From contig JAXGZS010000001.1 in NCBI GenBank assembly GCA_040776805.1, forward strand, positions 621,206-685,205: 64,000 nt of DNA, given 5' to 3'. Of the stretch, positions 449 to 61,004 are shown piece by piece. This DNA comes from Clostridiales bacterium (GTDB lineage Bacteria; Bacillota; Dehalobacteriia; UBA7702). The notes under the pieces are model-generated. The model was not told the origin of the DNA. It did not search any database and saw only the letters and a program-made list of their open reading frames with translations. Each line of letters opens with the position of its first letter. The stretch's first letter is position 1. The translations under genes and the position numbers were made by a program.

Positions 449-487
449 AATTTTTTTTTTTGATTTTTAAAATATTTGGCGGATGAC

Positions 488-516
488 TTGCAAAGGATGA
501 ATAAAAACTGTATAAT
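488..516 (+). promoter_or_regulatory. Sigma-A-like promoter (TTGCAA-17 nt-TATAAT) preceding the long non-coding region
   Basis: TTGCAA at 488-493 and TATAAT at 511-516 with a 17-nt spacer, directly downstream of the ispA stop codon. Confidence 0.5.
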
Positions 517-523
517 AATATGG

Positions 524-1120
524 AAAACAGGTGATGCGGTATTCTAGTCGGCAAAACTTTGTTTAAAGGCGGGGCTAAAAATCCGTCAAGGGCATATCGA
601 TGAAGTTTCTGGTGTTGGCTTCTTACGCCCAGTTTGGGGCTGATGCTGGAAGTTAAGAAAGAGGGGGGAATCCTCAATGGCATGAGGGCTGACCCTGCTT
701 TCGTGGAGACCCATGACTGTGGGGAACTTTTTTTGGTCGAAAAGGGAACTACGGCTTGGGAGAAGAACCTGTATTCGGGTGAACTGGGTACAGTGTAGCC
801 TGGCTTGCGTGGTTAAGGTGGAGAAGCAAACATGAAGACGCCGCAGCGGAAAGGGACCAAATTTCTGTTTCGGTATCAAAACCGGTACTGCAAAAGAGCA
901 TAGAACGAAGTGGCGTTGTTGAGGAAAACTCCTAGACCGTTTATTTTTAAGATGCAACGGGGATTAAAGTGCGGACTAAGTGGCAATCCGGTACCTGATG
1001 GATTTTCAAGTAAAGGGAAACCGCCTTTTCGGTGACGAAAAGGTTTGAAAATGGGAAAGCCTTCCGGACCAAAGCCGCAGCGTTTACCCGTTGGGTTGTC
1101 ACCTGTTTGATTCACTCTCT
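524..1120 (+). ncRNA. ole: Putative OLE (ornate large extremophilic) RNA
   Basis: A ~600 nt stretch has no coherent ORF on either strand; only short antisense or mixed-frame ORFs occur. It begins at a strong promoter and sits exactly between ispA and a small 4-TM membrane protein gene followed by dxs-tlyA. This is the characteristic ispA-ole-oapA-dxs arrangement of OLE RNA loci in anaerobic Firmicutes, and the length matches OLE (~600 nt). No primary-sequence check was possible here. Confidence 0.5.
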
Positions 1121-1125
1121 TTGAT

Positions 1126-1722
1126 TTGGAGTTTGTTTTGAAAAACAGAAAAAACGAACGAAAAAGTAAAGGTACATTGAGACACATCCTCATTGTGTTT
1201 TCAGGTACCTTTTTTTGTGCCACGCTGGTCAGCGTGGGCACCAACGCCGCGGCGGCAAGTCTGAAACCGATCTTTCTCGTGTTTCTCCTGCTGCTCACGG
1301 TCATCGCCGTCGGCGTGCTTTTTGATGTCATCGGCGTTGCCGCGGTGGGGGCGAACATCGTACCCTGTAATGCCAGAGCCGCGCGAAAAGCCCCCGGTGC
1401 CGCCGTGACCTTGAAACTATTGAAAAAAGCCAATGTCGTGGCGAATTTCTGCTGCGATGTGGTGGGTGATATTTGCGGTATTGTCTCAGGGGCTCTGGGC
1501 GCCACTTTGGTGGTGATCATCGGGGAGACCGTCCTCGATACCGTACTCATTTCGGCGCTCATGGCCGGGATGGTTTCGGCGCTGACCGTGGGGGGTAAGG
1601 CCGCCATGAAGGGGGTCGCCATCCGTTATGCCGACCGGATTATGGAAACCGTGGGGATCATCCTTGATTATAAAAACTGGAACAGGCTGTTTTCCGCGAA
1701 AAGGAAAACAGAGGGAGATTGA
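1126..1722 (+). CDS. oapA: Small integral membrane protein, OLE-associated protein A-like (4 predicted TM helices); start codon uncertain (TTG at 1126 or TTG at 1171)
   Basis: Four hydrophobic segments are present, with conserved-looking Asp-containing motifs (FDVIGVA, CCDVVGDICG). The size (~19-21 kDa) and the position between the non-coding region and dxs match oapA loci. Confidence 0.55.
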   Translation: MEFVLKNRKNERKSKGTLRHILIVFSGTFFCATLVSVGTNAAAASLKPIFLVFLLLLTVIAVGVLFDVIGVAAVGANIVPCNARAARKAPGAAVTLKLLKKANVVANFCCDVVGDICGIVSGALGATLVVIIGETVLDTVLISALMAGMVSALTVGGKAAMKGVAIRYADRIMETVGIILDYKNWNRLFSAKRKTEGD

Positions 1723-1723
1723 T

Positions 1724-3595
1724 ATGACATATTTGGAGCGCGTCAACGATCCTGCCGATATTAAAAAATTAAACGGTGACGAAGTGCTGCTCCTCGCCGA
1801 AGAAGTGCGCAGCTTTATGGTGGAACAGGTGGCGAAAACCGGCGGCCACCTCGCGCCCAGTCTCGGCGTGGTGGATTTGGTGGTGGCCATGTGCCGCGTC
1901 TTTGATTTTGCCAAAGACCGGGTTGTTTTCGATGTGGGCCATCAAAGCTACGCTTTTAAGATTCTCACCGGGCGCAAAGAAGCCTTTGCCACGCTGCGCC
2001 AATGGGGCGGACTCAGCGGTTTCCCCAAAGGTGAGGAAAGCCCTTACGATGCTTTTGACACGGGACACAGCAGCACGTCTGTTTCCGCGGCCTTGGGCCT
2101 TGCCGTGGCCAGGGACTTAAAGGGCGAGGACTATCGGGTGATTGCCGTCATCGGCGACGGCGCTTTGACCGGCGGCATGGCCTACGAGGCTATGAATAAC
2201 GCCGGCAGCCGGGAAGAGGATCTGATTGTGATTTTAAACGATAATCAGATGTCGATTTCCCGGAACGTCGGCGCCATGGCCAACTACCTGACCAGGGTCA
2301 GAACAGGGCCCAATTACAGCCGCCATAAGCAGAAAGCCAAAAAGATTTTGAAACGTACCAGCGGCGGCACGAAGCTTTTAAGCGGTCTGCGCCGAATCCG
2401 CGACAGCATCAAATACCTGATGGTGCAGGGGATGTTTTTTGAAGAAATGGGCTTTACCTATTTGGGACCCATCGACGGCCACGACATGGAAGCCATTGAG
2501 CGGCACCTGCGTTACTGTAAAAACGTGAGAGGACCGGTATTGCTTCATGTTTTGACCAAAAAGGGGAAAGGCTATTCCTATGCCGAAAGCCAACCCGACC
2601 AATTTCACGGCATCGCCCCCTTTGATCCTCAGAGCGGGAAATTGCTTTTCCCGGCCTCGGCCAAGTGTTTCAGCAAAGCCTTCGGGGAAAAACTCTGTGA
2701 TCTCGCCGCTTTGGATCAGCGTATTTTGGCCATCACCGCCGCCATGCCCGGGGGAACGGGTTTAAAACCCTTCGCGGAAAAGTACCGCGAGCGCTTTTTC
2801 GATGTCGGCATCGCCGAACCCCATGCCGTGACCTACGCGGCGGGGCTGGCGAAAAACGGCATGAAGCCGTGTTTTGCCGTGTACTCCTCTTTTTTGCAAC
2901 GGAGTATCGATCAGATCTATCATGATGTCTGCCTGCAAAAACTGCCGGTGGTTTTCGGCATTGACCGTGCCGGTGTCGTCGGCGAAGACGGCGAAACCCA
3001 TCAGGGCATTTACGACATTGCGCTCCTTCGGGAGCTGCCTTATTTGACGCTGTTGGCTCCCTCCACGGAAAAAGAACTCGGGGAAATGCTCACCTACGCC
3101 TTTGCCCTCCATGCCCCCTGCGCTTTGCGTTATCCCAAAGGCCCCATGTCCTCCTGGGATTTGGATTTCACCCATCAGCCCTTAATCGCGGGACAAGGGG
3201 AAATGGTCAAAGAAGGTAAAGACGTTTTGTTGCTGTCCCTGGGTATGATGATGGAGGAAGCGATCAAGGCCCGGGAAATTTTGAAAGATAGCGGCATCGA
3301 CGCCGGAATCTTTAATCCCCGTTTCATCAAACCCCTGAACCAAGAGGACATCCTAAAGCTTGCCCGCACCTACCCCTATTTTGTGACCATCGAAGATCAC
3401 GTTTTAAGCGGCGGTTTCGGTTCCGCCATCGGAGAAGTGCTGCACCGTGGTGACGCCGCGATCAAACTGAAAGCCATCGGTTTGCCCGACGAAGCCATTC
3501 CCCAGGGCCATCGCGACGAAGTTTTGGCTCACTACGGTCTGTCCGCCGCCGGGATTGCCGCAACGGTACTGGCCTTTGTGGGGCGGAAACCATGA
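1724..3595 (+). CDS. dxs: 1-deoxy-D-xylulose-5-phosphate synthase
   Basis: ATG at 1724 is preceded by GAGGGAG. The N-terminus MTYLERVNDPADIKKL, the TPP-binding GDGALTGGMA motif and the transketolase-like C-terminus are present. The upstream ORF extension from 1628 was rejected. Confidence 0.95.
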   Translation: MTYLERVNDPADIKKLNGDEVLLLAEEVRSFMVEQVAKTGGHLAPSLGVVDLVVAMCRVFDFAKDRVVFDVGHQSYAFKILTGRKEAFATLRQWGGLSGFPKGEESPYDAFDTGHSSTSVSAALGLAVARDLKGEDYRVIAVIGDGALTGGMAYEAMNNAGSREEDLIVILNDNQMSISRNVGAMANYLTRVRTGPNYSRHKQKAKKILKRTSGGTKLLSGLRRIRDSIKYLMVQGMFFEEMGFTYLGPIDGHDMEAIERHLRYCKNVRGPVLLHVLTKKGKGYSYAESQPDQFHGIAPFDPQSGKLLFPASAKCFSKAFGEKLCDLAALDQRILAITAAMPGGTGLKPFAEKYRERFFDVGIAEPHAVTYAAGLAKNGMKPCFAVYSSFLQRSIDQIYHDVCLQKLPVVFGIDRAGVVGEDGETHQGIYDIALLRELPYLTLLAPSTEKELGEMLTYAFALHAPCALRYPKGPMSSWDLDFTHQPLIAGQGEMVKEGKDVLLLSLGMMMEEAIKAREILKDSGIDAGIFNPRFIKPLNQEDILKLARTYPYFVTIEDHVLSGGFGSAIGEVLHRGDAAIKLKAIGLPDEAIPQGHRDEVLAHYGLSAAGIAATVLAFVGRKP

Positions 3596-4383
3596 AAAAA
3601 CGCTTGGATCTACTTTTATTGGAGCGAAACCTCTTCGCCTCCCGGGAAAAAGCCCGGACGGCGATTATGACCGGGCGCGTGATCATCGAGGGCAGAAAAG
3701 AAACGAAAGCCGGTACCATGGTGGCGGAAGACGCGAACATCGAAGTGTGCGGCCATGATTTACCTTATGTCAGCCGGGGCGGTCTCAAATTGGCAAAAGC
3801 CATCACCGCTTTCGGTCTTGCTTTCGGTGATCGGGTCATTCTCGACATCGGCGCTTCCACCGGCGGTTTTACCGACTGCGCGCTCCAGCACGGGGCACGG
3901 AAGGTCTATGCGGTGGATGTCGGTTATGCCCAGCTGGCCTGGTCTTTAAGGAGCGACGACCGAGTCGTCGTTTTGGAAAAAGTCAACGCCCGCTATCTGA
4001 CGGCGCAACAGGTGCCGGAAAAAGTGGATTTCATCACCATTGACGCTTCCTTCATTTCCCTGAAAAAGCTGATTCCTCCCTTGGCGGACTTTTTAACAGA
4101 GGACGGCGCCTTTGTGGCGTTGATCAAACCACAGTTTGAGGCAGGCAGGGAACAGGTCGGCAAAAAAGGCGTGGTGCGGGATCCCGCTGTCCACCGTGAA
4201 GTGCTGCGCGACTTATGCGCCTTTTTTCAGGAAAACGGATGGTATGTCCACGGTCTGACTTTTTCGCCGGTGAAAGGCCCCGAAGGCAACAGGGAATACC
4301 TCGTTTTGCTGAAAGCGGAAAAAAGTTCTTTTGCGGTGGTGGAAATGGATCAAATCGTGGCGGAAGCCTTCGCATGTATTTGA
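3592..4383 (+). CDS. tlyA: TlyA family rRNA 2'-O-methyltransferase (S4 domain + FtsJ fold)
   Basis: An N-terminal S4 RNA-binding region and a GASTGGFT SAM motif are present. The ATGA overlap with dxs and the conserved position after dxs support the call. Confidence 0.9.
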   Translation: MKKRLDLLLLERNLFASREKARTAIMTGRVIIEGRKETKAGTMVAEDANIEVCGHDLPYVSRGGLKLAKAITAFGLAFGDRVILDIGASTGGFTDCALQHGARKVYAVDVGYAQLAWSLRSDDRVVVLEKVNARYLTAQQVPEKVDFITIDASFISLKKLIPPLADFLTEDGAFVALIKPQFEAGREQVGKKGVVRDPAVHREVLRDLCAFFQENGWYVHGLTFSPVKGPEGNREYLVLLKAEKSSFAVVEMDQIVAEAFACI

Positions 4384-4461
4384 AAATATTGAAATAATAT
4401 ACATTTAGCTATTTACAGCAGGGCGATAATATTGTATATTTAATAATAGAGGTATTGCGAA

Positions 4462-5322
4462 ATGAAGAGAATCGGCGTGCTTGCCAATTTCAAACGTAAT
4501 GTGGAAGCGGTGCGGCAGAACGTAATTTCCTGGCTTCTCGCAGAAAATGCGGAAGTGATTACCCCCGAGGCTGCCTATAATGTGGTGGATCAGGAATTCC
4601 TCCATGATTTCCTAAGCGATAAGGGTAAGACTTGTGACGGTCTGCTTGTGCTGGGCGGCGACGGAACGATGCTTTCGGTGGCACGGCAGGCGGCTTTTTT
4701 TTCGATACCGATCATTGGCATCAATCTGGGGCACGTCGGCTTTTTGGCGGAAATCGAGCCCCACGGACAGCAGCTTTACCAATCCCTGCGCCGTCTGATC
4801 GACGACGACTTTGCCTTGGAGCACCGTATGATGCTGAAAGTCAAGGTGTTCAGAGAAGGAGATCTGTTTCAGGAATACCATTGTCTGAACGATTGTGTTG
4901 TCATTAAAAACACCAGCTACGGGCTGATCCATCTTACCGCCTATATCGATGAAAAATCGTATTTGTCCTATAAGGGCGATGGCCTGATCGTGTCCACGCC
5001 CACGGGAGCATCGGGATATTCCCTCTCGGCTGGAGGCCCCTTGGTTTCCCCGGAGATGGAGGCGATGATCTTAACACCCATTGCGGCGCACTGTTTATAC
5101 TGCCGCTCCCTTGTGATCAGCGCCGACCGCACCGTGATGATGGAAGCGGATATTTCAGAAATCGGCGGCAGCCTCTGCATTGACGGCAGAACTTCTGTTT
5201 TGAAACTTGTCGAGGGCGACCGCGTTACGATTACAAGATCGGAATTGGTGACGGACTTTATCCGTCTGAACGATAAATCTTATTTCCACGTGCTCAACGA
5301 AAAGTTGAGGGAAAGAGCGTGA
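4462..5322 (+). CDS. nadK: NAD kinase
   Basis: The GGDGTML motif is present and the protein is 286 aa, the typical PpnK length. Confidence 0.9.
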   Translation: MKRIGVLANFKRNVEAVRQNVISWLLAENAEVITPEAAYNVVDQEFLHDFLSDKGKTCDGLLVLGGDGTMLSVARQAAFFSIPIIGINLGHVGFLAEIEPHGQQLYQSLRRLIDDDFALEHRMMLKVKVFREGDLFQEYHCLNDCVVIKNTSYGLIHLTAYIDEKSYLSYKGDGLIVSTPTGASGYSLSAGGPLVSPEMEAMILTPIAAHCLYCRSLVISADRTVMMEADISEIGGSLCIDGRTSVLKLVEGDRVTITRSELVTDFIRLNDKSYFHVLNEKLRERA

Positions 5323-5945
5323 TGGAACTTGTGCGGCCTGTCTGTGCCATGATTCACGGGGAGGCAAAAAAATTGCTTTATCCCGGCGCCGTCGCCATTG
5401 ACGCGACAATGGGCAATGGGGAAGACGCGGCATTTTTGTGTGAAGCCGTCGGCGCAGACGGCAAAGTATATGCATTTGATGTACAGGACGACGCCATCGA
5501 AGAGACGCGGCGCCGTCTGGAAAAAGTGGGTCTTTTGGACCGTGTTGTGCTCATCAAAGACGGTCACGAAAACATCCGCGAATACGTAAAAGAGGCCGTC
5601 GATGTGGCCGTGTTCAACCTGGGTTACCTGCCCGGCGGCGATCATGCCATCACGACTTTGGCCACTACGACAGTGCGGGCCATGGGGGAATGCCTTGCCC
5701 TGTTGAAAGAAGAAGGCGCTGTGTTCTTAGGGCTTTATTGGGGACATCAAAACGGGGCGGAGGAGAAGAAAGCAGTCGAGACGTTTTTGACGACGCTGTC
5801 TCCTGCCCATTGGGCGATTGCGGAAACAAGGTTTCCCAACCGCGAAAAGGCGCCGCTTTTTATTGAAATTCAGAAAAAGAGGTATGGTTATGGGAACAAA
5901 AGCATCCAGACAGAAGATGATTCAGAAAATAATCGAAAAAGATGA
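5319..5945 (+). CDS. Class I SAM-dependent methyltransferase (putative rRNA methylase family)
   Basis: A Rossmann-fold methyltransferase motif (AIDATMGNGEDA) is present. The start overlaps nadK (ATGA). The 3' end overlaps argR by ~60 nt. Confidence 0.6.
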   Translation: MMELVRPVCAMIHGEAKKLLYPGAVAIDATMGNGEDAAFLCEAVGADGKVYAFDVQDDAIEETRRRLEKVGLLDRVVLIKDGHENIREYVKEAVDVAVFNLGYLPGGDHAITTLATTTVRAMGECLALLKEEGAVFLGLYWGHQNGAEEKKAVETFLTTLSPAHWAIAETRFPNREKAPLFIEIQKKRYGYGNKSIQTEDDSENNRKR

Positions 5946-6348
5946 AATCGGGACACAGTTTGAATTGGCGGAACGCCTGAAGCAGCACGGTTTTAATGTG
6001 ACCCAGGCGACGGTTTCCCGGGATATCAAAGAGATTGGCTTGATCAAAATTCCCGTTGAGGGTAATTTTTCCAAATATAGTATGCCAGTGAATATTTCCG
6101 TTGGTAATATCGCCGAGCGTATGCGCCGCATGTTTATTGATAACGCTGTATCCATTGATAACGCGGAAAATCTTGTGGTCATCAAAACCCTGCCCGGCAC
6201 GGCCCAGGGGCTTGCCGCTTGCCTGGATCAGTGCGGCTGGCAGGAACTTGTGGGCTGCATTGCCGGGGATGATACCATCTTAATTATCATCAAAGAAAAA
6301 ATGCTGGTAAACGGCATCATCTCCCGCTTTGAAGCATTAATGAACTAA
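5884..6348 (+). CDS. argR: Arginine repressor ArgR/AhrC
   Basis: The N-terminal winged-helix region (QATVSRDIKEIGLIKIP) and the C-terminal oligomerisation/arginine-binding domain (GTIAGDDTILII) are present. The RBS AAGAGG precedes ATG at 5884. The longer ORF from 5818 was rejected. Confidence 0.9.
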   Translation: MVMGTKASRQKMIQKIIEKDEIGTQFELAERLKQHGFNVTQATVSRDIKEIGLIKIPVEGNFSKYSMPVNISVGNIAERMRRMFIDNAVSIDNAENLVVIKTLPGTAQGLAACLDQCGWQELVGCIAGDDTILIIIKEKMLVNGIISRFEALMN

Positions 6349-6386
6349 AAAACTAAAGAACTGATCGCCCAAAGGATGGCTGCGAA

Positions 6387-8069
6387 ATGGAGACCGCCAT
6401 GTTAGCCGAAATTTATGTTGAGAATTTCGCTCTCATTGAGAATCTGCAAATTGAATTTCACGAAGGTCTGAATATCATCACCGGCCAAACCGGCGCCGGC
6501 AAATCGCTTCTCACCGATGCGGTAGGCCTGCTATTAGGCGGCAAAAGCGATAAAGATCTGATACGGCAGGGAACCGGGAAGGCCTTGGTGGAAGGGACGT
6601 TTTCGGGTCCTTTTTCCGCTGCAGTGCAAGACTTTTGCCGGGAAAACGACGTGATGGGCGATACCGTTGTGATCAGCCGGGAAATGAGCAGCGAGGGAAA
6701 GAATACCGTGCGCCTCAACGGCCGGCGGATCACCTTATCCCTTTTGGAAGAGCTGACGCCGCTGCTGATGAACATCCACAGCCAGACAGAGCATTTTTCC
6801 TTATTCAAAGAAGAAGCCCAATTGCAGCTTTTGGACTCCTTCGGCGGTGAAAAAATCGTTACCCAAAAGGAAAGGGTGGGGGAAGCCTTTCTTCTCTGGC
6901 AGGAACGAAAAAGCGCCTTGACAGAGCTGAAACGTAACATGAGTGACAGGGAAAGGCGTCTCGACTACCTTTGCTACCAGCAAAAAGAAATTCAGGGGTT
7001 TCACCTGATGTCCGGGGAAGAGGAAACGGTGCGAGAGACCATCGCGCTCCTTGCCAGCAGTGTGAGCCGCTACGAAGAGGCTCAACTTATTTACGCCAGC
7101 CTCCGCGGCGATGAAAACGGCAATGTGATCGACGGTCTTTACCAGGCGATGAACGCCGCCGGTCGGATCGCCCAAAATGACCAAGCCTTGGAAAAAACAG
7201 CCTCCTCTTTGCAGGATCTTTATTATACCGTCGAAGATATTTCCGAGGAGGTTTTAAATTATCGCGACACCATTGAGATGGATCCCCGGCGCCTGGAGGA
7301 TTTGGAAAACCGTTTGAGTGAAATCAGGAGAGCCGAAAAAAAGTACAACCGCGACGTCGAGGGCATTCTCAACTATTTACAGGAAATTGAGGCGGAAATC
7401 GCCGCCCTGACAGACGCCGATATCTATATGGAGCAAGCCGAAAGGGAAGAAGCCGAGGCTTACCAACGCTTTTTCGCCACCGCGGCGGAGCTCAGCAGTT
7501 TGCGCAGCCAAACCGGGAAGCGCCTTGCCGATGCCATTGAAAAGGAACTGAAAGAGCTGATGCTCCCGGATGCCCGCTTTGATGTGGTGCTCCGCGATGC
7601 TCCCGTTTCCGCCCAGGGAAAAGACAGCGTCACTTTTATGGCGACCATGAACAAAGGGGAGGATCTGCGGCCCTTGGCCAAAGTCGCCTCCGGCGGGGAA
7701 ATCTCCCGGGTGCTTCTGGGCGCCAAAATCATTCTTGCCGATCTCGACGCCATCGGAACGATGATCTTCGATGAAATCGACAGCGGCCTGGGGGGAGAAA
7801 CCGCCGCTCGCGTTGGCGAAAAGCTCAAACGACTGGGCGAAGGGATACAGGTTTTTGCCGTAACTCACTCGCCCCTCGTGGCGGCATACGCCGATCATCA
7901 TTATTATATTGAAAAGAAAGAAGAAAGCGGACGCGTGTCCGTTCATCTAAAAACCCTGTCCAAAAAGGATATTCGTCATGAAATCGCGCGGATGCTGTCA
8001 GGAGACGGAAACAGTACGATTTCCTTACATCAGGCCGACGCGTTATTGAGAGCCGCGGGCAACGGTTAA
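6387..8069 (+). CDS. recN: DNA repair protein RecN
   Basis: A Walker A motif GQTGAGKS is present, with long coiled coils and a C-terminal ABC signature region. The synteny argR-recN is conserved. Confidence 0.95.
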   Translation: METAMLAEIYVENFALIENLQIEFHEGLNIITGQTGAGKSLLTDAVGLLLGGKSDKDLIRQGTGKALVEGTFSGPFSAAVQDFCRENDVMGDTVVISREMSSEGKNTVRLNGRRITLSLLEELTPLLMNIHSQTEHFSLFKEEAQLQLLDSFGGEKIVTQKERVGEAFLLWQERKSALTELKRNMSDRERRLDYLCYQQKEIQGFHLMSGEEETVRETIALLASSVSRYEEAQLIYASLRGDENGNVIDGLYQAMNAAGRIAQNDQALEKTASSLQDLYYTVEDISEEVLNYRDTIEMDPRRLEDLENRLSEIRRAEKKYNRDVEGILNYLQEIEAEIAALTDADIYMEQAEREEAEAYQRFFATAAELSSLRSQTGKRLADAIEKELKELMLPDARFDVVLRDAPVSAQGKDSVTFMATMNKGEDLRPLAKVASGGEISRVLLGAKIILADLDAIGTMIFDEIDSGLGGETAARVGEKLKRLGEGIQVFAVTHSPLVAAYADHHYYIEKKEESGRVSVHLKTLSKKDIRHEIARMLSGDGNSTISLHQADALLRAAGNG

Positions 8070-9270: not shown

Positions 9271-9395
9271 TGGAAGAGAGCAAAGCTTTCTGGAAAGAGC
9301 AACAAAGATTCATGAGCGGATTTTTAACATATTGTATGAAGCCTCGTGAATGGGTTGTGGAAAAGAGCAAAAACACGGCAGATGGAAAGAAAAAT
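9271..9395 (+). repeat. Four purine-rich direct repeats (TGGAAAGAGCAA-like) in the 5' leader of fhs
   Basis: Copies occur at 9271, 9291, 9359 and 9383: tggaagagagcaaag / tggaaagagcaacaaag / tggaaaagagcaaaaac / tggaaagaaaaa. Confidence 0.5.
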
Positions 9396-9453
9396 TAAAA
9401 GTTCTTTACAAAGGAAAGAAAAGGAAACTAAAAAACGAGAGGAGAACAAAACT

Positions 9454-11211
9454 ATGCTTGATCCTAATGTTATGAAAGACTGGCAAATTGCGGAAGCTGC
9501 GGAGAAAGAATTACCTTCTGTTGACGCATTTCGCGAAAAAATGGGGTTACTTCCCGACGAAATTATTCCCTATGGTCGCACTCCCAAGTTGAATTTTCTC
9601 AAAATCATGGATCGCGTCAAAGATCAACCTGACGGGAAGTTCATCGAAGTTACTGCCATTACCCCCACTCCTTTGGGTGAAGGGAAATCCACCACCTCTT
9701 TGGGTATCATCGAAGGTCTCGGCAAACGCGGCATGAATGTCGGCGGTTGCCTGCGTCAGCCCTCCGGCGGACCGACCATGAACATCAAAGGTACTGCTGC
9801 CGGCGGCGGCAACGCACTGTTGATTCCGATGACGGAATTTTCTTTGGGCCTTACCGGTGATATCAACGAAATCACCAACGCCCACAATCTTTCTATGGTC
9901 GCTTTGAACGCGAGAATGCAGCATGAAAACAATTATAATGATGCAGAGCTGGCGGAAAAAGGTCTGAAACGCTTGGATATTGATCCTGAACGCGTGGAAA
10001 TGGGATGGGTGATTGACTTTGCCGCCCAATGCCTGCGCAACATTGAAATCGGTCTGGGCGGCCCGAAAGACGGCTTCCAGATGAAAAGCAAATTCGGTAT
10101 CTCCGTTAGTTCCGAATTGATGGCGATTCTTGCCGTCGCTCGCGATCTTGCGGACCTTAGAGAACGCGTCGGCAATATCATCGTTGCCTACGACAAACAG
10201 GGCAATCCCGTCACCACCGCTGATTTGCAGGTGGATGGCGCGATGACCGCCTGGATGCGCAATGCCATCAACCCGACTCTCTGTTACACTTCTGAGCTGC
10301 AGCCCTGCCTCGTTCATGCCGGCCCCTTCGCCAACATCGCCATCGGTCAGTCTTCCATCATCGGCGATAGATTGGCCTTGAAGATGTTCGATTACCATGT
10401 TACGGAAAGCGGTTTTGCCGCTGACATCGGTTTCGAAAAATTCTGGAATGTCAAATCCCGTATTTCCGGTTTGACGCCCAATGTCTCGATTCTCGTCTGC
10501 ACCGTTCGCGCCCTTAAAATGCACGGCGGCGGCCCCACCGTGGTTCCCGGCCGTCCTTTACCTGAAGAATACACCAAAGAAAACATCGATCTTCTTGAAA
10601 AAGGCATGTGCAATCTGATTCATCATATCAATACCATTAAAAAGTCGGGGATCAATCCCGTTGTTTGTATCAACAGCTTCAGCAGCGATACCGATGCGGA
10701 AATCAACCTGATTCGTCAAACCTGCGATAAAATGGGCGTTCGCTGCGCGAAATCCGAACATTGGAGATATGGCGGCGAGGGTGCTTTGGATCTGGCCGAT
10801 GCAGTCATCGATGCCTGCAAAGATCCTGTGGATCTCAAATTCCTCTATGACTTGGAAGTTCCCCTGCGTCAACGCGTGGAACTCATCGCCAAAGAAGTTT
10901 ACGGCGCCGACGGCGTAGAATGGTCCGATCTTGCCACTGAAAAGGCGAAACGCTTCGAAGCGGATCCCAAGTACAAAGACTTCTCTACCATGATGGTGAA
11001 AACACATTTGAGCTTGTCTCATGATCCTACCCTGAAAGGCGTGCCCAAAAACTGGAAACTGCCTATCCGCGACGTTTTGGTTTACGGCGGTGCCAAATTC
11101 CTCTGCCCCATGGCGGGTACGATCAGCTTGATGCCCGGTACCAGTTCCCGCCCGGCCTATATGAAGGTCGATGTGGATACCGCCACCGGCGCGGTCAAAG
11201 GACTGTTTTAA
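9454..11211 (+). CDS. fhs: Formate--tetrahydrofolate ligase
   Basis: The protein is alignable to FTHFS along its full length ([12 protein letters not shown]-loop, 586-aa size). ATG at 9454 was chosen over the upstream ORF extension. Confidence 0.95.
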
Positions 11212-11232
11212 AAAAGATAGGAGGGAGCAGCG

Positions 11233-11862
11233 ATGCGATTTGCTGAAAAGACCTGTGATCAAGTGATCACGGAATTGGCTGCAAAAGCTCCCGTTCCCGG
11301 CGGCGGCGGTGCCTCAGCTCTGGTAGGGGCTGTAGGCACCGCCCTCGGCAATATGGTAGGGAGTTTCACCAAAGGAAAGAAAAAATTTGCGGACGTAGAA
11401 GAATCCATTATTTCCCTACAGGAAAAATGCGATGATCTGCAGAACAAGTTTTTAAATCTTATGGATGACGATGCAGAGAACTTTACACCGCTTTCGAAAG
11501 CCTACGGCATGAAAGAGGATACTCAAGAGCAGCGGGAGGAAAAGGCAAGAGTGATGGAGGAAGCGACCGTCAACGCCTGCCGCGTCCCGGAAAAGATTAT
11601 GGAACTATGCTGTGAAGCCATTGACGCTTTGGAGGAGTACCTGAAAATCGGGAATCCTCTCCTCGTCAGTGATGTGGGAGTCGGCGTTCTCTGCTGCAAG
11701 GCCGCCCTTTTTGGCGCGTCTTTGAATGTTTATATCAACACGAAGTCCATGCAAAACAAAGAAACCGCCTCTTCTATCAACGAGAGAACAGGGGAAATGC
11801 TGGCCGCCTACGGCAAAAAGGCGGATGACATTTACCATGCGGTGGCAAGACAGATCCAATAA
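11233..11862 (+). CDS. fchA: Methenyltetrahydrofolate cyclohydrolase (cyclodeaminase-domain protein)
   Basis: FTCD C-terminal cyclodeaminase-like fold (~209 aa, Gly-rich N-terminus VPGGGGASALVGA). It sits between fhs and folD, as in acetogens. Confidence 0.75.
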   Translation: MRFAEKTCDQVITELAAKAPVPGGGGASALVGAVGTALGNMVGSFTKGKKKFADVEESIISLQEKCDDLQNKFLNLMDDDAENFTPLSKAYGMKEDTQEQREEKARVMEEATVNACRVPEKIMELCCEAIDALEEYLKIGNPLLVSDVGVGVLCCKAALFGASLNVYINTKSMQNKETASSINERTGEMLAAYGKKADDIYHAVARQIQ

Positions 11863-11896
11863 ATATTAAACAATAAACAAAAGGAAGGGAGATATT

Positions 11897-12754
11897 ATGG
11901 CAAAGATTTTATCCGGTAAGGAAGTTGCCGCGGCTTTGAAAGAAGATCTTTTAAAACGTGTTGCGGCGTTAAAAGATAAGGGCGTCACGCCAACCTTAGC
12001 CATTGTGCGAGTGGGAGAAAAAGACAGCGACATTGCTTATGAAAAAGGCGCCATGAAAAAATCGGAAACCTTGGGCATTGCCGTGAAAAACGTCATTTTC
12101 CCGGCGGATGTGGAAGAAGCCAAACTCATTGCCGCCCTTGAAGAACTCAACGGCGCCAAGGATGTTCACGGTGTGCTGTTATTCCGTCCGTTACCCGAAC
12201 ATTTGAATTATGACCGTGTCTGCAATACGCTGATTGCGGATAAAGACGTCGACGCCATGACCACCATCAACAGCGGTTTGGTCTATGACGGCAGTGAGGA
12301 CGGGTTCCCTCCCTGCACCGCCCAGGCGGTTATGGAAATATTGGATTATTATGAGATTCCCGTTAAGAGCGCGAAAGTCGCTTTGGTGGGCTGGGGTGCC
12401 GTGGTCGGAAAACCCCTTTCCGTACTGTTGCTGAACCGCTTTGCCACCTTAACGGTGTGTCATATCTTTACAAAAGATGTCTCCACCCCCTGTCAAGACG
12501 CGGAGCTGATTATTTCTGCGGCAGGGAAAGCCAACTTGGTGGGAGAAAAACACTTGGCAAAAGGTCAGATCGTCATCGACGTGGGGATCAACGCAGACCC
12601 CAACAACCCCGGAAAAATCGTGGGGGATGTCGATTATGCTTATGCGGAAAACCTTGTTGACGCCATTACCCCGGTTCCCGGCGGCGTGGGCAGCGTTACC
12701 ACTTCCGTGTTGGCAAAACATGTGATCATGGCTGCTGAAAAAACCCTTAGATAA
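11897..12754 (+). CDS. folD: Bifunctional methylene-THF dehydrogenase / methenyl-THF cyclohydrolase
   Basis: 285 aa. Conserved FolD regions are present, including a GxGxVGKP Rossmann motif (GWGAVVGKP). Confidence 0.9.
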   Translation: MAKILSGKEVAAALKEDLLKRVAALKDKGVTPTLAIVRVGEKDSDIAYEKGAMKKSETLGIAVKNVIFPADVEEAKLIAALEELNGAKDVHGVLLFRPLPEHLNYDRVCNTLIADKDVDAMTTINSGLVYDGSEDGFPPCTAQAVMEILDYYEIPVKSAKVALVGWGAVVGKPLSVLLLNRFATLTVCHIFTKDVSTPCQDAELIISAAGKANLVGEKHLAKGQIVIDVGINADPNNPGKIVGDVDYAYAENLVDAITPVPGGVGSVTTSVLAKHVIMAAEKTLR

Positions 12755-12787
12755 TTCCTTCTAAGGCGACGAAAGGAGTTGAACCAC

Positions 12788-14377
12788 GTGACCAACAGAT
12801 TTAAGGAGTCTCTTTTGGACCCTGGTACCTTTTCGGTAACCTGGGAAATCGTCCCCGGTCGTGGCGCCAATGAAAAAGCCCAGATCGAAGCGATTGAAAC
12901 CGCCAAGGCAGGGGCGAAGGATCCCCGCATCCACGCCATCACCATTACAGACTGTCCCAGCGGGAATCCCGCGATTTTAGCGGAGAATCTGGGCAAAGAG
13001 ATTCTGGATTTGGGCATTGAGCCATTGGTTCATTTTACCTGTAAAGATAAAAACAGAACCCAAATGGAAAGCCAACTGTATGCCATGGCCAGAAGCGGTA
13101 TCCGCAACATACTGGTGATGACCGGTGACTATGTCAACGATGCCTATCAAGGCCGCGCCAAACCGGTTTTTGACATTGACCCCATTCAGTGCGGCGGCTT
13201 GATTTCCACCATGAATCAGGGCTTAGAATATCAAGTCGGTCCCAGAACCATCAAAAACCAACCCACCGATTTCTTTTACGGCTGTGCCGTATCGCCCTTC
13301 AAAAGTCAGGAATCCGAGCAGATCGGACAGTATAACAAGCTGATCAAAAAAGTGAGAGACGGCGGCGCGCAATTTGTCATTTGCCAGCTGGGCTATGATA
13401 TACGGAAATTCCATGAAACCTTCCAATTTATGGAGCAAAATGGGCTGAACGTACCTTTGGTTGGCAATATTTACATTTTGCCTTTCGGCGCAGGGAGATT
13501 GATGAACAGAAACGGGATTCCCGGCGCTGTCGTCACCGATAAGCTTCTGCACCAGCTTGAAAAAGAAAAACAGGCGGAAGATAAGGGCAAAGAAGCGAGA
13601 TTGATGCGGGCTGCAAAAATGTACGGCATCATGAAGGGCATCGGTTTTGCCGGCGCTCACATCGGCGGCCACGGCATGAGCGCCGATGATATGGATTATA
13701 TCATCGTCGAAGGCGAAAAGTACGCGGGTAACTGGAAATCCCATGTAGATGAATTCGATTATCCCATGAAAAACGGTTTCTATTATTATCAGAAGGATCC
13801 CGAAACGGGTCTGAATTCGGAAAAACGTACGGAAATCGATCCCGATAATTTGGAATTCCGCGTGGGCGGGATCTATCATATGTCCCATTTTGTCCACTGG
13901 CTGATGATGACTCCGGGGAAAAATCTTTTTAACTTTATGCGCGGTTTCTACAAACTCATCGACGATACCAAAGTGGAGCGTCCCTATCACTTCTGCGAAC
14001 ACATGGCAAAGGTTATGCTCTATGACTGCAAAGACTGCGGCGACTGCGCCATGACCCATACGGCCTACGCCTGTCCGATGTCGAAATGTCCCAAACATCA
14101 AAGGAACGGCCCCTGCGGCGGCAGCCGTGACGGCTGGTGCGAAGTATATCCCGAGAAGAAGAAATGCATCTACGTCAAAGCCTATACCCGCCTGAAAGGG
14201 TACGGCTTGGAAGAGGAATTATCTACATATTCCGTGGCGCCTTGCGACTGGAAACTTTACCAGAAGCCCTCTTGGGTCAATTATTTCCTCGGCCGCGATC
14301 ATGATGCGAAACGCTTGGGCATTCCTTATGTGCCGCCGAAAGCGGAACGCAAAGCAATGAAACGGAACGCAAAATAA
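12788..14377 (+). CDS. metF: Methylenetetrahydrofolate reductase fused to a C-terminal MetV-like Cys-rich zinc-ribbon domain
   Basis: The N-terminal ~300 aa are alignable to MTHFR (EIVPGRG, HFTCKD, ILVMTGD). The C-terminal ~230 aa carry CKDCGDCA...CPMSKCPKHQRNGPCGG, the MetV / MTHFR-C-terminal-domain signature. GTG at 12788 is preceded by AAGGAG. Confidence 0.85.
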   Translation: MTNRFKESLLDPGTFSVTWEIVPGRGANEKAQIEAIETAKAGAKDPRIHAITITDCPSGNPAILAENLGKEILDLGIEPLVHFTCKDKNRTQMESQLYAMARSGIRNILVMTGDYVNDAYQGRAKPVFDIDPIQCGGLISTMNQGLEYQVGPRTIKNQPTDFFYGCAVSPFKSQESEQIGQYNKLIKKVRDGGAQFVICQLGYDIRKFHETFQFMEQNGLNVPLVGNIYILPFGAGRLMNRNGIPGAVVTDKLLHQLEKEKQAEDKGKEARLMRAAKMYGIMKGIGFAGAHIGGHGMSADDMDYIIVEGEKYAGNWKSHVDEFDYPMKNGFYYYQKDPETGLNSEKRTEIDPDNLEFRVGGIYHMSHFVHWLMMTPGKNLFNFMRGFYKLIDDTKVERPYHFCEHMAKVMLYDCKDCGDCAMTHTAYACPMSKCPKHQRNGPCGGSRDGWCEVYPEKKKCIYVKAYTRLKGYGLEEELSTYSVAPCDWKLYQKPSWVNYFLGRDHDAKRLGIPYVPPKAERKAMKRNAK

Positions 14378-14416: not shown

Positions 14417-14785
14417 ATGTTCAACATCAGTTTTGCCGAGCTTATGGTTATTCTGCTCATCACCTTCCTGGTGTTGGGACCGAAAGAAATGGCCAAAGTC
14501 GCCCGGGGTTTGGGCAAAGCCGTCAAAAAAGCCCAAAACTTTGTGACGGATATGAAGAACTTTGTCAATGAAAGCGCGGAAGGCACCCCTTTAAACGATA
14601 TGAAGGAGGCGGTTACCGACGTCAAGGAAGCGGTCGATTCAGTAAAAGCCGAAGTTGATAAAATGAACCCTGTCAGTGATCTCAAAAAAGAGATCGAAAC
14701 GGAAATCAAACCGATACAAGACATCAAAAACTTAAAGACCAATCCTGCCAAAAAAGGAGCGGATCTTTTGCAGAAAAAAAAGTAA
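14417..14785 (+). CDS. tatB: TatA/TatB family twin-arginine translocase subunit
   Basis: An N-terminal TM helix is followed by a hinge and an amphipathic helix (FGPKEMAKVARGLGKAVKK). The acidic/charged tail is longer than in TatA. Confidence 0.75.
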   Translation: MFNISFAELMVILLITFLVLGPKEMAKVARGLGKAVKKAQNFVTDMKNFVNESAEGTPLNDMKEAVTDVKEAVDSVKAEVDKMNPVSDLKKEIETEIKPIQDIKNLKTNPAKKGADLLQKKK

Positions 14786-18471: not shown

Positions 18472-18515
18472 ACACGTTATTCTTGCCGAGAAGTAGGCAG
18501 AAGGGGGATGCTCTT

Positions 18516-18752
18516 ATGAGAATTGGTGTATGGGAAATACTTCTGATCATCGTTTTGGTGCTTATCCTTTTTGGTGGCGCCAAGTTAGCCGGGGTCGGCA
18601 AAAACTTGGGACGCGGCATCAAAGAGTTTAAAGAAGAGGTTAAAGACACCGGCGAATCCTCTCCACAGGTTGCGGAAGCGTCTGCGGAAGAAACCAAAAA
18701 AGCGGAAGATACCGAAAAAAAGGAAGCTAAAAATTCCGAGCCCGACGCATAA
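18516..18752 (+). CDS. tatA: Twin-arginine translocase subunit TatA
   Basis: ILLIIVLVLILFGGAKLAGVGKNLGRGIKEFK is a canonical TatA TM-hinge-amphipathic-helix region. Confidence 0.9.
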   Translation: MRIGVWEILLIIVLVLILFGGAKLAGVGKNLGRGIKEFKEEVKDTGESSPQVAEASAEETKKAEDTEKKEAKNSEPDA

Positions 18753-20737: not shown

Positions 20738-21154
20738 CTATTTTACAACCAGCACGGAACAGGGCGCCAAGCGCACAAGGCTTGCGCAGGTGCTGCCCAT
20801 GATCCTTTCATAAATTGCCGATACGCCCAAAAAGCCGATGATCAAGAGATCGATGTCTTGCTCCATGATAAACTCAATTATCGCCTTTACCTCATGTCCA
20901 AATAAGATATGAGGGATAATGGCGCCGCCCTCCGCGGCGGCGACGGCTTGCGCTTCCTCGATAATTTTTTTGTATTTGCTGTCTTCGTAATCCTTTTCAT
21001 CCATCACTTCGCTGATGGTTTCCGGAAAGCGCAGCATGGCCTCCACGGATACGGTATGCAATGGGGCGTCATAAAAACGTGCAAGCCGTATGCCCTCCGC
21101 CAACGCCTTAAAGGCGTTTTTTGAACCATCAAGACCTACCAGTATCTTGTTCAT
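20738..21154 (-). CDS. uspA: Universal stress protein (UspA family)
   Basis: 138 aa with USP-fold ATP-binding motifs (VGLDGS near the N-terminus, GSTCASL near the C-terminus). Co-operonic with the antiporter. Confidence 0.8.
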   Translation of the reverse strand: MNKILVGLDGSKNAFKALAEGIRLARFYDAPLHTVSVEAMLRFPETISEVMDEKDYEDSKYKKIIEEAQAVAAAEGGAIIPHILFGHEVKAIIEFIMEQDIDLLIIGFLGVSAIYERIMGSTCASLVRLAPCSVLVVK

Positions 21155-22361
21155 GGTGATGCTCCTCTCTTTTTACAGAATAACTGATTTTGTTTGACTT
21201 TGCCTTTCCCCAATCGTTCATCTCCTCCGCCGAAGGTTCAAAAAACCGCTGAGCGATCAAAGTTGGTATGATTGCGGTCAGGATAATGACGGTAACCAGC
21301 ACAGAATATTGGTCTTGCCCGATGATATGATGGGAAAGCCCAAATTGCGCTGAAATGGTACCGAAGGTAAGCCCGGTGGACATCAGCAGCGTTGTATAAT
21401 TGGCTTGTTTGAGCCCCATCTGAAACCCCCTTGCCGCCGGCCAGACGCCGATCATTTTGCAGAGGACTTTCATCAAGAATAAAGCGGCGATCACCCCAAA
21501 GGATAGCCAAACGGCATGCAAGGACACATGCAAGCCCGCTTTCATAAAGTAGAAAGGGGTGAAAACCGCGAAGGTGATGGTACGCATCCGGCTGATGAGG
21601 GTTTTATTTTTAACGAATACCCCCGCAACCACAAGACCGATGAGATAAGCGGGAAGCACCGCCTCGCTGCCGGCAAGGGTGGCAAGTCCCGCTAAAAGGA
21701 AGAGGACGAAAAAGATGAATTTTACTTCCGGTTCGCTGACCCTTTGTTCTCCGCATTTGGCAAGGATAAATCTTGTGAGGCGAGGCATCAAAAACATCAC
21801 GATGGCCGTGAGCACAATAAAAACAAGCAGATACAAATTGAATCCGGCAAAGAGTACACCGAGAGCGATGACAGTGGCCAAGTCGTTGACGAAACAGGCC
21901 GCCAGGATCATCTTGCCGAGGCTGGTGTTGGCTTTACCCGTTTCGATCATCACCGCATATACCACCGCCACCGAAGTCGTGGAAAGAGCGAGTCCGGCGA
22001 TTTGCGCCTGCTGGAGATCCCAGCCAAGCACAAATTGGGTAAAAAGCCAGACGCCGCCAAAGGGAAAAATGAATGCCGCGATACCGATGGTGAGACTGCT
22101 TTTTAAATTGGCGCGTAAGGAAACCGGGTCAATTTCCGCGCCGGACAGGAAGGTCAAGACGACGCTTCCCAAAGCGGCTAAAAAATCAATCCATTCATTG
22201 GTTTGGTGAAGACCCAAGAAATTTCCCGCAATCACGCCGACGATGATTTCGATCAAAGCCACAGAAATACCAAGACGTATGGAGATCAGGCTGGCGAAAA
22301 AGGCGAGGCCGATCCAGATGGCGGCGATGACCCAGGTGTTGTTCAAAATCGTTGATAACAA
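21129..22361 (-). CDS. Cation:proton antiporter (CPA family Na+/H+ or K+/H+ exchanger), fluoride-riboswitch controlled
   Basis: 410 aa with ~11-12 TM helices and Na_H_Exchanger-like topology. The gene lies immediately downstream (minus strand) of two crcB-motif riboswitches. Confidence 0.8.
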   Translation of the reverse strand: MLSTILNNTWVIAAIWIGLAFFASLISIRLGISVALIEIIVGVIAGNFLGLHQTNEWIDFLAALGSVVLTFLSGAEIDPVSLRANLKSSLTIGIAAFIFPFGGVWLFTQFVLGWDLQQAQIAGLALSTTSVAVVYAVMIETGKANTSLGKMILAACFVNDLATVIALGVLFAGFNLYLLVFIVLTAIVMFLMPRLTRFILAKCGEQRVSEPEVKFIFFVLFLLAGLATLAGSEAVLPAYLIGLVVAGVFVKNKTLISRMRTITFAVFTPFYFMKAGLHVSLHAVWLSFGVIAALFLMKVLCKMIGVWPAARGFQMGLKQANYTTLLMSTGLTFGTISAQFGLSHHIIGQDQYSVLVTVIILTAIIPTLIAQRFFEPSAEEMNDWGKAKSNKISYSVKREEHHHEQDTGRS

Positions 22362-22412: not shown

Positions 22413-22494
22413 AAAAAACTCCTACAAATGACGCAAAGCCGCGTATCTGTAGGAGTCATTAGCTAAAAAGCGATTCAGTGAACTCCATCACTAT
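22413..22494 (-). promoter_or_regulatory. Fluoride riboswitch (crcB motif), copy 2 (gene-proximal), with intrinsic terminator
   Basis: Minus-strand RNA: AGUGAUGGAGUUCACU-GAAUCGC-...-GCUAAUGACUCCUAC. It has a P1 helix, an AUGGAGUU loop, an AAAC-like joint and the conserved 3' AAUGACUCCUAC pseudoknot strand. The terminator hairpin at 22419-22455 (ctcctaca...tgtaggag plus U-run) overlaps the 3' aptamer strand. Confidence 0.8.
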
Positions 22495-22523
22495 CGTGGA
22501 TATTGGATTTTTTAAATTTGACC

Positions 22524-22606
22524 ATAAAAAAACACCTACTTCAAATTCATGAAAGTAGGAGCCATTAGCAATTTTCATTGCGTTTCGGTGAGCCCCATCA
22601 CCATAA
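22524..22606 (-). promoter_or_regulatory. Fluoride riboswitch (crcB motif), copy 1 (promoter-proximal), with intrinsic terminator
   Basis: Minus-strand RNA: GGUGAUGGGGCUCACC-GAAACGCAAUGAAAAUUGC-UAAUGGCUCCUAC. It is near-colinear with the Thermotoga petrophila fluoride aptamer (GGCGAUGAGGCCCGCC-CAAACUGCCCUGAAAAGGGC-UGAUGGCCUCUAC). The terminator hairpin at 22533-22559 plus a U7 run overlaps the pseudoknot strand. Confidence 0.85.
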
Positions 22607-22610
22607 CGAG

Positions 22611-22639
22611 ATTATAGCACGTTGCTTTTTCTTTGTAAA
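22611..22639 (-). promoter_or_regulatory. Promoter (TTTACA-17 nt-TATAAT, minus strand) for the riboswitch-antiporter-usp operon
   Basis: Reverse complement reads ctcTTTACAaagaaaaagcaacgtgcTATAATctcg, directly 5' of aptamer 1. Confidence 0.6.
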
Positions 22640-59990: not shown

Positions 59991-60268
59991 GAGCAAGACA
60001 ACACCGCAATCGGTGTCGAATATTTCCAAAATAAAGTTGATGAATAGCATTGAAAAACCGTCGGGCATGGTGTATACTAAAGAAAAATCCCTGCATTGTT
60101 CGTGACAGCCATCGTTTTGAACCAACACATTTTTTAAGGGAATTTCTCTCTTTCCGCGGCCCTCGCGCCCCGATTTATCGGGGATCTGGAAAACGGGAAG
60201 GAAAATACCCACCTGTCAAGGACAGGTACAAAACCCGGCGGCACGGCAACAGCGGGGATCTTTTTGCA

Positions 60269-61004
60269 ATGAAGACCGAGCGTTTTATGCGGTTTTCCGC
60301 CCTGGTCGGCGAGGAAACCTTTGAAACCCTTACCAAAAGCCATATTTTGATTTTCGGAATCGGCGGCGTCGGTTCCTATCTCACAGAAGCCCTCGCCCGC
60401 TGCGGCGTGGGCAAATTGACTTTGGTGGATTTCGATACCGTCGCCGTCCATAATATCAACCGGCAGATTCATGCCCTGACCTCGACAATCGGGCAAAGGA
60501 AAGTCGATTTGATGAAAGCCCGCATCGCCGATATCAACCCCCAATGCGACGTACGCGTTTTTGCAGAGCGGGTCACGGCGGCAGAGGTGTCCTCCTTTTT
60601 TACGGAGCGCCTCGATTATGTCTGCGACGCCATCGACGATGTGGCGGCGAAAATCGCCGTCATCATGCACTGTCGGGAGCAGGGGATTCCCTTGATTTCC
60701 GCCATGGGTACCGGGAATAAGCTCCAGCCCCAGCTGCTGACCGTGACCGATATCAGTAAGACTCGGTTTGTCCGTTGAGCCGGATGGTGCGAGGAAATTG
60801 CGGGAACAGGGAGTGGAAAAGGGCGTTACGGTGGTTTACTCCCCGGAAATCCCCGTGAAAAGCGGTCTTTACGACGACGGAAAACCGGTCCCCGCCAGCT
60901 CCTGTCTGGTGCCGCCGGCAGCCGGTATTCTGATGGCGTCTCATATCATCAACGACTTTGTGCAACATAAAAGCGAAGAGCATAAAATCAATAAAATCAA
61001 TTAG
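60269..61004 (+). CDS. tcdA: tRNA threonylcarbamoyladenosine dehydratase (ThiF/MoeB-like E1, TcdA/CsdL), reading frame interrupted by an apparent frameshift near 60755-60780
   Basis: The Rossmann motif ILIFGIGGVGSY is present in the ORF ending at 60778. The expected C-terminal part (KLREQGVEKGVTVVYSPEIP...) continues in the +1 frame (ORF 60768-61004). Confidence 0.75.

Follow-up and report, generated by a model that had tools for sequence, protein, structure and literature searches.

The 64,000 nucleotides of contig JAXGZS010000001.1 analysed here (the window) open with the end of ispA and a long gap before the next gene. The locus raises the question of whether this gap holds an OLE RNA and whether the gene after it encodes OapA, as the initial annotation proposed. 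OLE stands for ornate, large, extremophilic, and the name denotes a bacterial non-coding RNA of large size and extensive folding. We are almost certain that positions 515-1118 on the + strand are ole, the gene for an OLE RNA of about 585-600 nt, with oapA as the next gene. The features of this part of the window are the following:

2-448, + strand: 3' part of ispA (farnesyl diphosphate synthase; PF00348 3.5e-26, NF045485 FPPsyn 6e-43).
488-516, + strand: sigma-70-type promoter of ole, with the -35 box TTGCAA at 488-493, a 17-nt spacer and the -10 box TATAAT at 511-516, from the promoter scan and from conservation.
515-1118, + strand: the OLE RNA gene (ole), as the extent of the Rfam RF01071 match (cmscan, 419.9 bits).
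525-1108, + strand: OLE RNA core bounded by the closing helix P1, from P1 pairing, covariation and minimum free energy (MFE).

The ispA fragment encodes a polyprenyl synthetase cut by the window start, and its stop codon lies at 446-448. Relatives L081-L088 have a 292-aa polyprenyl synthase in this same position. The gap of about 680 nt that had been described after ispA is present and measures 677-689 nt, since oapA can be taken to start at 1126 (the mechanical ORF) or at a better TTG at 1138.

The covariance-model search proposed for this gap gave a clear answer. Scanning the whole window against Rfam, we found RF01071 at 515-1118 with 419.9 bits (E 6.3e-120), far above the gathering score of 50 bits for this family; the match covered model positions 1-616, was not truncated, and was on the + strand only. 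The nine lineage relatives (L001, L081-L088) carry OLE in the same gap with 422-461 bits, and Rfam detected OLE in every re-tested locus except L041. The window copy scores about 100 bits lower than canonical members (420 bits vs. 506-522 for L009 and L014, and 470-520 for canonical OLE examples).

At the structural level, the Rfam consensus structure mapped onto the window gave standard pairs at 118 of the 135 model pairs, and the non-standard ones were concentrated in distal P7, P8, and P9. The paired positions of the Rfam model do not include P1: 525-534 pairs with 1099-1108, and all ten base pairs are perfect in the window RNA. To follow these helices in other genomes we used alignment A2, which contains the window RNA and 29 OLE sequences from other genomes (n = 30) and was not fitted to the structure because it was built by MAFFT. 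Standard pairs filled 88.2% of its cells, vs. 40-48% when the 3' partners were slid by 1-3 columns. Changes on both sides of the pair (compensatory changes) were seen at 101 of 145 pairs and, for P1, at nine of its ten pairs across the 30 sequences. None of 500 shuffles attained any of the observed pairing measures. The + strand RNA folds with an MFE of -198 kcal/mol (z -2.8), and its reverse complement with -150 kcal/mol. Helices P1 to P15 are all represented in the window RNA, the junction sequences are invariant, and loops L4, L5, and L6 equal the consensus. Nothing that we found contradicts membership of the OLE family. Three outcomes had been named beforehand as counting against an OLE RNA –no covariance-model match, no similarity of the neighbouring protein to OapA, or an unstructured 5' UTR– and none of them occurred.

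An A/T-rich tract (449-487) precedes the promoter of ole. The promoter scan recovered the TTGCAA-17-TATAAT arrangement already pointed out at 488-516, with ten of 12 consensus matches, as the sole sigma-70-like site in 300-2000, vs. 0.8 expected by chance; such a match by itself is weak evidence for a promoter. The two boxes and their spacing are kept in all nine lineage relatives (L001, L081-L088), where the DNA further upstream diverges, and the distance from the promoter to P1 is fixed across them. TATAAT-like boxes are found directly upstream of OLE in distant species as well. Transcription would start near 523, about 7 nt past the -10 box. An extended -10 promoter was also considered and rejected: the TG directly abuts TATAAT rather than standing at -15/-14, and the scan flags none.

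Downstream of OLE, a terminator scan of 1100-1140 found no terminator between the RNA and oapA. This brings in the first alternative, in which the region is nothing more than a long 5' leader for an oapA-dxs-tlyA operon and acts in cis as an attenuator or in a riboswitch-like manner. No intrinsic terminator lies within 1108-1138, oapA starts 29 nt past P1, and the close packing of dxs and tlyA would permit translational coupling; therefore, the promoter at 488-516 would drive oapA too, and OLE could exist largely as the leader of an oapA-dxs mRNA unless it is processed. However, the match is full-length and to a curated family of stand-alone RNAs, some species have their own terminator-like hairpin after OLE (L014 and L034), and OLE RNA has been documented as an abundant RNA that acts in trans, binding OapA, OapB, and OapC (PMC9723947, PMC12265935). 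We consider a purely cis-acting leader very improbable. Co-transcription and a trans role of OLE are not mutually exclusive. The ole promoter probably gives rise to an ole-oapA(-dxs-tlyA) transcript, and stable OLE RNA would accumulate from it.

Within the OLE RNA, the parts that are tied to protein partners in other species are located as follows:

594-661, + strand: P5 (606-626/632-652) with the k-turn flanks AUCGAUGAAG (596-605) and GUUAAG (652-657).
657-702, + strand: P6/P6.1, counterpart of the bS21-binding region of Halalkalibacterium halodurans, from the helix list and the alignment.
993-1002, + strand: vestigial P13, in which C994-C995 pair with G1000-G1001 around the loop UGAU.
1002-1052, + strand: P14 (1002-1009/1045-1052) and P14.1 (1023-1031/1036-1044) with a GUGA tetraloop (1032-1035), from pairing and covariation.

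The k-turn, which is the predicted OapC site, is intact in the window RNA. Both flanks, AUCGAUGAAG and GUUAAG, equal the consensus, and the k-turn nucleotides are invariant in the 30 sequences of A2 (C84 G85 A86 T87 G88 A89 A90 G91 and G138..G143 in OLE numbering). C598 and G657 of the window correspond to the C85-G144 pair of H. halodurans, where the OapC-binding k-turn of OLE RNA was defined in PMC9723947. P6/P6.1 retains the conserved GGG/CCC pairs, and its proximal strand reads CUUUC, not the CCUCC anti-Shine-Dalgarno mimic that has been tied to bS21 binding (PMC12054373). Measured between invariant anchors, P5, P6, P7, P9, and P14.1 have typical lengths, and the P8 segment, at 20 nt vs. 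a median of 28, is the shortest seen.

P13 is where the window RNA departs most visibly from other OLE RNAs. In H. halodurans, its GNRA loop and 1-nt bulge are the primary determinants of OapB binding, and the GNRA loop of P14.1 is a weak secondary site (PMC7936274). In the window, P13 has about two base pairs, without a GNRA tetraloop and without the 1-nt bulge, and the segment that holds it (AAUCC to UAAAGGGAAACC) has 21 nt, whereas the median elsewhere is 34 nt. Of 48 other loci, 45 carry the G-GNRA-C motif in this segment; in the window lineage, none of ten does. The nine relatives, whose OapA proteins are 54-94% identical, likewise present a vestigial P13 or a non-GNRA loop. Next to it, all 17 pairs of P14 and P14.1 are standard and both helices covary; by analogy with H. 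halodurans, the GUGA loop of P14.1 would correspond to the weak secondary OapB site.

Could these reductions mark a decaying, non-functional OLE remnant? The score of 420 bits compared with 470-520 for canonical examples, the vestigial P13 and the unusually short P8 could be read in that way. Nevertheless, relatives with an OapA of only 54-94% identity have kept this architecture, compensatory changes and the promoter are kept across the lineage, and the other conserved junctions, the loops reported as dimer contacts (L4, L5, and L6) and oapA are intact. This persistence, together with the covariation and the intact loops and oapA, speaks for purifying selection and not for decay, so we regard a remnant as highly improbable; given the covariation and the promoter conserved across the lineage, a decaying pseudogene was rejected.

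The gap had also been described as non-coding on both strands. This needs one qualification: mechanical minus-strand ORFs of 131 aa (288-683), 123 aa (586-957), and 248 aa (876-1622) overlap the gap, although it has no conserved coding potential in any of the six frames. That such ORFs exist mechanically is the case for a hidden protein-coding gene, for example at 288-683 or 586-957 of the minus strand, and we dismiss it as having a negligible probability: each of the six frames of 515-1118 contains 2-11 stops, the longest open stretch is not conserved, falling in different frames and having different lengths across 12 related OLE loci, substitutions track RNA pairing (the 101 compensatory pairs), and the antisense ORF 876-1622 has an atypical GC content by codon position.

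The gene that follows the OLE RNA had been predicted to encode a small protein with four transmembrane (TM) helices and Asp-containing motifs, similar to OapA.

1128-1131, + strand: Shine-Dalgarno GGAG of oapA, from the sequence.
1138-1722, + strand: oapA, encoding a four-helix membrane protein of 194 aa with a TTG start, from homologues, motifs, and AlphaFold2.

The mechanical ORF spans 1126-1722, and a start at 1138 is more likely than one at 1126. The TTG at 1138 lies 6 nt past GGAG, the N-termini of homologues (MKNRKNERK...) begin exactly there, and the same GGAG-6 nt-TTG arrangement is found in L001, L081, and L083. By a heuristic choice of start codons, oapA begins with TTG in 46 cases, with GTG in 19, and with ATG in 15.

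Pfam and NCBIfam scans of the protein encoded at 1126/1138-1722 gave no match even at E <= 1, and for this reason we assigned the protein to the OapA family on the basis of its homologues, its motif, its fold, and its linkage to OLE. A large protein collection contained 285 homologues of the window protein. In alignments of 16 and 67 homologues, D63, D107, D111, and T150-x-G-x-K154 (which reads T-V-G-G-K) are invariant or nearly so, and both Asp residues of the DxxxD motif, D107-V-V-G-D111, are invariant in the 67. This motif was reported as the feature that distinguishes OapA from CNNM domains (Fernando & Breaker, PMC11332333).

The predicted topology agrees with what had been anticipated for this protein: four Kyte-Doolittle hydrophobic segments lie at roughly 16-36, 43-72, 100-128, and 131-155, and the AlphaFold2 model (pLDDT 78) has four long helices at 10-41, 45-71, 98-129, and 135-163, with D63 and D107xxxD111 as the Asp motifs. 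The loop at 72-100 contains six K/R and no D/E, with a nearly invariant K84, and probably faces the cytoplasm; four TM helices and a cluster of basic residues have been described for OapA (PMC12265935). The top PDB matches in Foldseek were 7M1T and 7M1U, structures of MtCorB, a CNNM transporter from an archaeon (probability 1.00, TM 0.50-0.54), followed by bacterial CorC (7CFF), with weak E-values (0.04-0.4). The same 7M1U was the top structural match reported for H. halodurans OapA (PMC11332333). The CNNM family PF01595 gave weak matches in 53 of the 67 family members and none for the window protein.

Linkage to OLE is the strongest evidence for the OapA identity. We counted it in the 80 best genomic loci that encode relatives of the window protein: in 76 of them an OLE-like sequence immediately precedes the gene on the same strand, and three of the other four have no upstream DNA. 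With the DxxxD motif, the four TM helices, and the predicted CNNM-like fold, this linkage points to an OapA, in agreement with the initial annotation.

When compared to known OapA proteins, the window protein occupies the same position, is of the same size (194 aa), and shares the four TM helices, the DxxxD motif, the basic loop, and the CNNM-like fold. It represents a divergent branch, with 33-42% identity to the homologues of Thermotalea, Anaerosolibacter, and Crassaminicella (alignment A1), 38-40% to those of Neomoorella, Alkaliphilus, and Thermincola, and 39% to that of L041. The transmembrane fold is common to the CNNM Mg2+ transporters MpfA, CorB, and CorC (7M1T, 7M1U, and 7CFF). However, the window protein lacks the CBS pair and the CorC/HlyC domain, and has four TM helices instead of three; it ends about 30 residues past TM4, and its 194 aa leave no room for further domains. 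Since CNNM domains do not carry DxxxD (PMC11332333), these differences together indicate that it is not a member of the MpfA/CorB/CorC family. An anticorrelation between MpfA and OLE has been published.

For the RNA, the closest comparison is with full-length OLE from H. halodurans, Clostridium botulinum, Neomoorella, and Alkaliphilus, in which the whole RF01071 model is covered as it is in the window. They share P5, P6, P7, P9, and P14.1 of typical size, the k-turn nucleotides, L4/L5/L6, and the position of oapA as the next gene within ispA...dxs. The window RNA differs from them in its P13 of about 2 bp with UGAU, without GNRA loop and bulge, in its minimal P8 (20 nt vs. the median of 28), and in its P6 without the CCUCC mimic. 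Two variants were described by Fernando & Breaker in 2024: variant 1 (TANB77-type) and variant 2 (RF39-type) have P7, P8, and P9 shortened or missing, their hosts are gut symbionts with reduced genomes, and variant 1 often lacks the OapB-site nucleotides at the P13 tip (PMC11332333). The missing OapB site at the P13 tip is the likeness between variant 1 and the window RNA. In contrast to both variants, P7 and P9 are full length in the window, and the RF39-like loci L016 and L028 score only 225-235 bits.

The host lineage does not look genome-reduced either, given its sporulation and Wood-Ljungdahl genes: the relative L081 carries spoIIIA, and the window carries fhs-fchA-folD-metF. These genes are consistent with a spore-forming anaerobic host of the Bacillota, the phylum expected for OLE RNA, whose hosts are typically anaerobes or extremophiles. 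The nearest records are labelled as uncultured Peptococcaceae, Clostridiales, or Bacillota MAGs.

The best-supported account of what OLE may do derives from published studies of H. halodurans. By analogy with that work and with work on Clostridium, the OLE RNA of the window would accumulate as a stable species and dimerise through loops L4, L5/L6, and L9, and OapA dimers would hold it at or in the membrane. OapA itself would be a CNNM/CorB-like putative divalent-cation transporter that has neither of the cytoplasmic domains, CBS and CorC. The RNA would recruit OapB, OapC, and bS21, and together with these small protein partners it may replace the regulatory module that OapA lacks. The resulting ribonucleoprotein (RNP) may modulate OapA and other targets when cells face stress from cold, short-chain alcohols, Mg2+, or the carbon source, and so could help them to withstand cold, short-chain alcohols, Mg2+ in excess, and poor carbon sources.

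The composition of this RNP may differ in the window lineage, as neither the GNRA loop and bulge of P13 nor the CCUCC mimic of P6 is conserved. With P13 vestigial, OapB –if it is encoded– must use the GUGA loop of P14.1 or is dispensable. Among the 14 small ORFs of the 64-kb window we found neither oapB (KOW/YbzG-type) nor oapC (L7Ae/YbxF-type); the small-ORF matches were instead to TatA (twice), a BlaI-type repressor, Fic, bPH, YajC, thioredoxin, and Usp. One tentative reading, which we hold to be rather doubtful, is that a free-living, spore-forming Bacillota lineage with Wood-Ljungdahl genes runs the OLE RNP without the canonical OapB-P13 contact, which H. halodurans cannot do without. If true, oapB would be absent from the lineage, or OapB would dock on the GUGA loop of P14.1 alone, and the lineage would offer a natural "minimal-partner" OLE RNP in which the rest of the RNA is full length, unlike in the gut symbionts with reduced genomes.

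Overall, this is a standard OLE/oapA locus of a kind already known. The OLE family, its neighbourhood, and its OapA partner are well described, with 2,822 OLE matches in Bacillota in a GTDB-wide survey, and the window copy adds little that is new. The organism can be annotated as carrying the OLE/OapA stress-response system, with a dedicated ole promoter that is conserved and keeps a fixed distance to P1. The vestigial P13, specific to the lineage, is the only new detail; similar losses of P13 have already been published, and here the loss occurs in an otherwise full-length RNA. A lineage that has lost the main OapB docking hairpin in this way is relevant to the question of which protein contacts OLE RNAs need in all cases.

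The genes downstream of oapA were identified on the + strand as follows:

1724-3595, + strand: dxs (TIGR00204, 771 bits).
3592-4383, + strand: tlyA, rRNA 2'-O-methyltransferase (TIGR00478, 265 bits).
4462-8069, + strand: rest of the conserved ole neighbourhood, from Pfam, with nadK (4462-5322), an rRNA methylase gene (5319-5945), argR (in ORF 5818-6348), and recN (6387-8069).

The succession of dxs and tlyA after oapA, already read from the sequence by the initial annotation, was borne out by these family matches. dxs begins 1 nt past the oapA stop, with GAGGGAG at 1711-1717 within the end of oapA, and tlyA overlaps the dxs stop by 4 nt. From our own locus comparison, and from the OLE neighbourhood that Puerta-Fernandez et al. 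reportedly described in 2006, ispA...dxs is the classic OLE neighbourhood; our literature search found no paper that joins OLE RNA with ispA and dxs. The order spoIIIA-nusB-xseAB-ispA-ole-oapA-dxs-tlyA-nadK-argR-recN is common to the relatives, and from nadK to recN the order is identical in L081 and L082. In GCA_002482535.1, a 94%-identical relative, it reads spoIIIA-asp23-nusB-(tsaD-like)-xseA-xseB-ispA-[OLE]-oapA-dxs-tlyA-nadK-MTase-argR-recN-amidohydrolase-fhs, which is the order of the window and is also found in more distant relatives.

Two OLE RNAs from other genomes have independently acquired a P13 that is short and not of the GNRA type; P13 is the helix whose GNRA hairpin is the main OapB site in H. 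halodurans and which is vestigial in the window. The segment measures 25 nt in Anaeromonas frigoriresistens (L034) and 24 nt in an uncultured Clostridia MAG (L069), and despite this the OLE scores are otherwise high (487 and 440 bits, respectively). Two further loci (L058 and L070) carry long insertions in the P13 segment instead. For P6, the window OLE RNA (657-702) lacks the CCUCC anti-Shine-Dalgarno mimic, which is the reported bS21 site in H. halodurans (PMC12054373). The motif was present in P6 of about nine of the 30 aligned OLE sequences and absent from others (e.g., L003 and L033).

The oapA gene also occurs without a neighbouring ole. In a Peptococcaceae MAG (L041; JBBIMW010000028.1, region 3005-6524), an ispA-like ORF, an OapA homologue, and a dxs-like ORF follow each other in this order, with 70 nt separating the first two. 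The homologue presents 39% identity and retains DVVGD, and OLE RNA was not found within +/-4 kb, even with the cutoff relaxed to E <= 1.

At the level of translation initiation, oapA appears to favour weak start codons: among 80 loci, we assigned TTG to 46, GTG to 19, and ATG to 15, using a Shine-Dalgarno-guided heuristic rather than gene calls. By the same heuristic, the TTG start is found in the window (position 1138) and in all nine lineage relatives.

Apart from the ole neighbourhood, the window contains the following features:

9346-14377, + strand, Wood-Ljungdahl methyl-branch cluster
14417-14785, + strand, first TatA/B/E-family gene
18483-18752, + strand, second TatA/B/E-family gene
20738-21154, - strand, universal stress protein gene
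21129-22361, - strand, Na+/H+ exchanger-family gene
22443-22501, - strand, fluoride riboswitch aptamer 1
22549-22611, - strand, fluoride riboswitch aptamer 2
60085-60262, + strand, 6S RNA (RF00013), 77.9 bits

The Wood-Ljungdahl cluster, a few kb 3' of the ole neighbourhood, encodes formate-THF ligase, cyclodeaminase-type FchA, FolD, and a MetF with a C-terminal extension; the position of fhs is common to the window and the lineage relative L081. The two TatA/B/E-family genes lie less than 4 kb apart, with larger genes around them.

A mechanically called ORF (60050-60778) is probably not a gene across the 6S RNA stretch, because the RNA overlaps its start.

Fluoride riboswitches usually control crcB or eriC-F. 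Here, the tandem aptamers (45.6 and 44.1 bits in the Rfam scan of the window, against a gathering score of 34) lie 5' of the Na+/H+ exchanger-family and universal stress protein genes instead.
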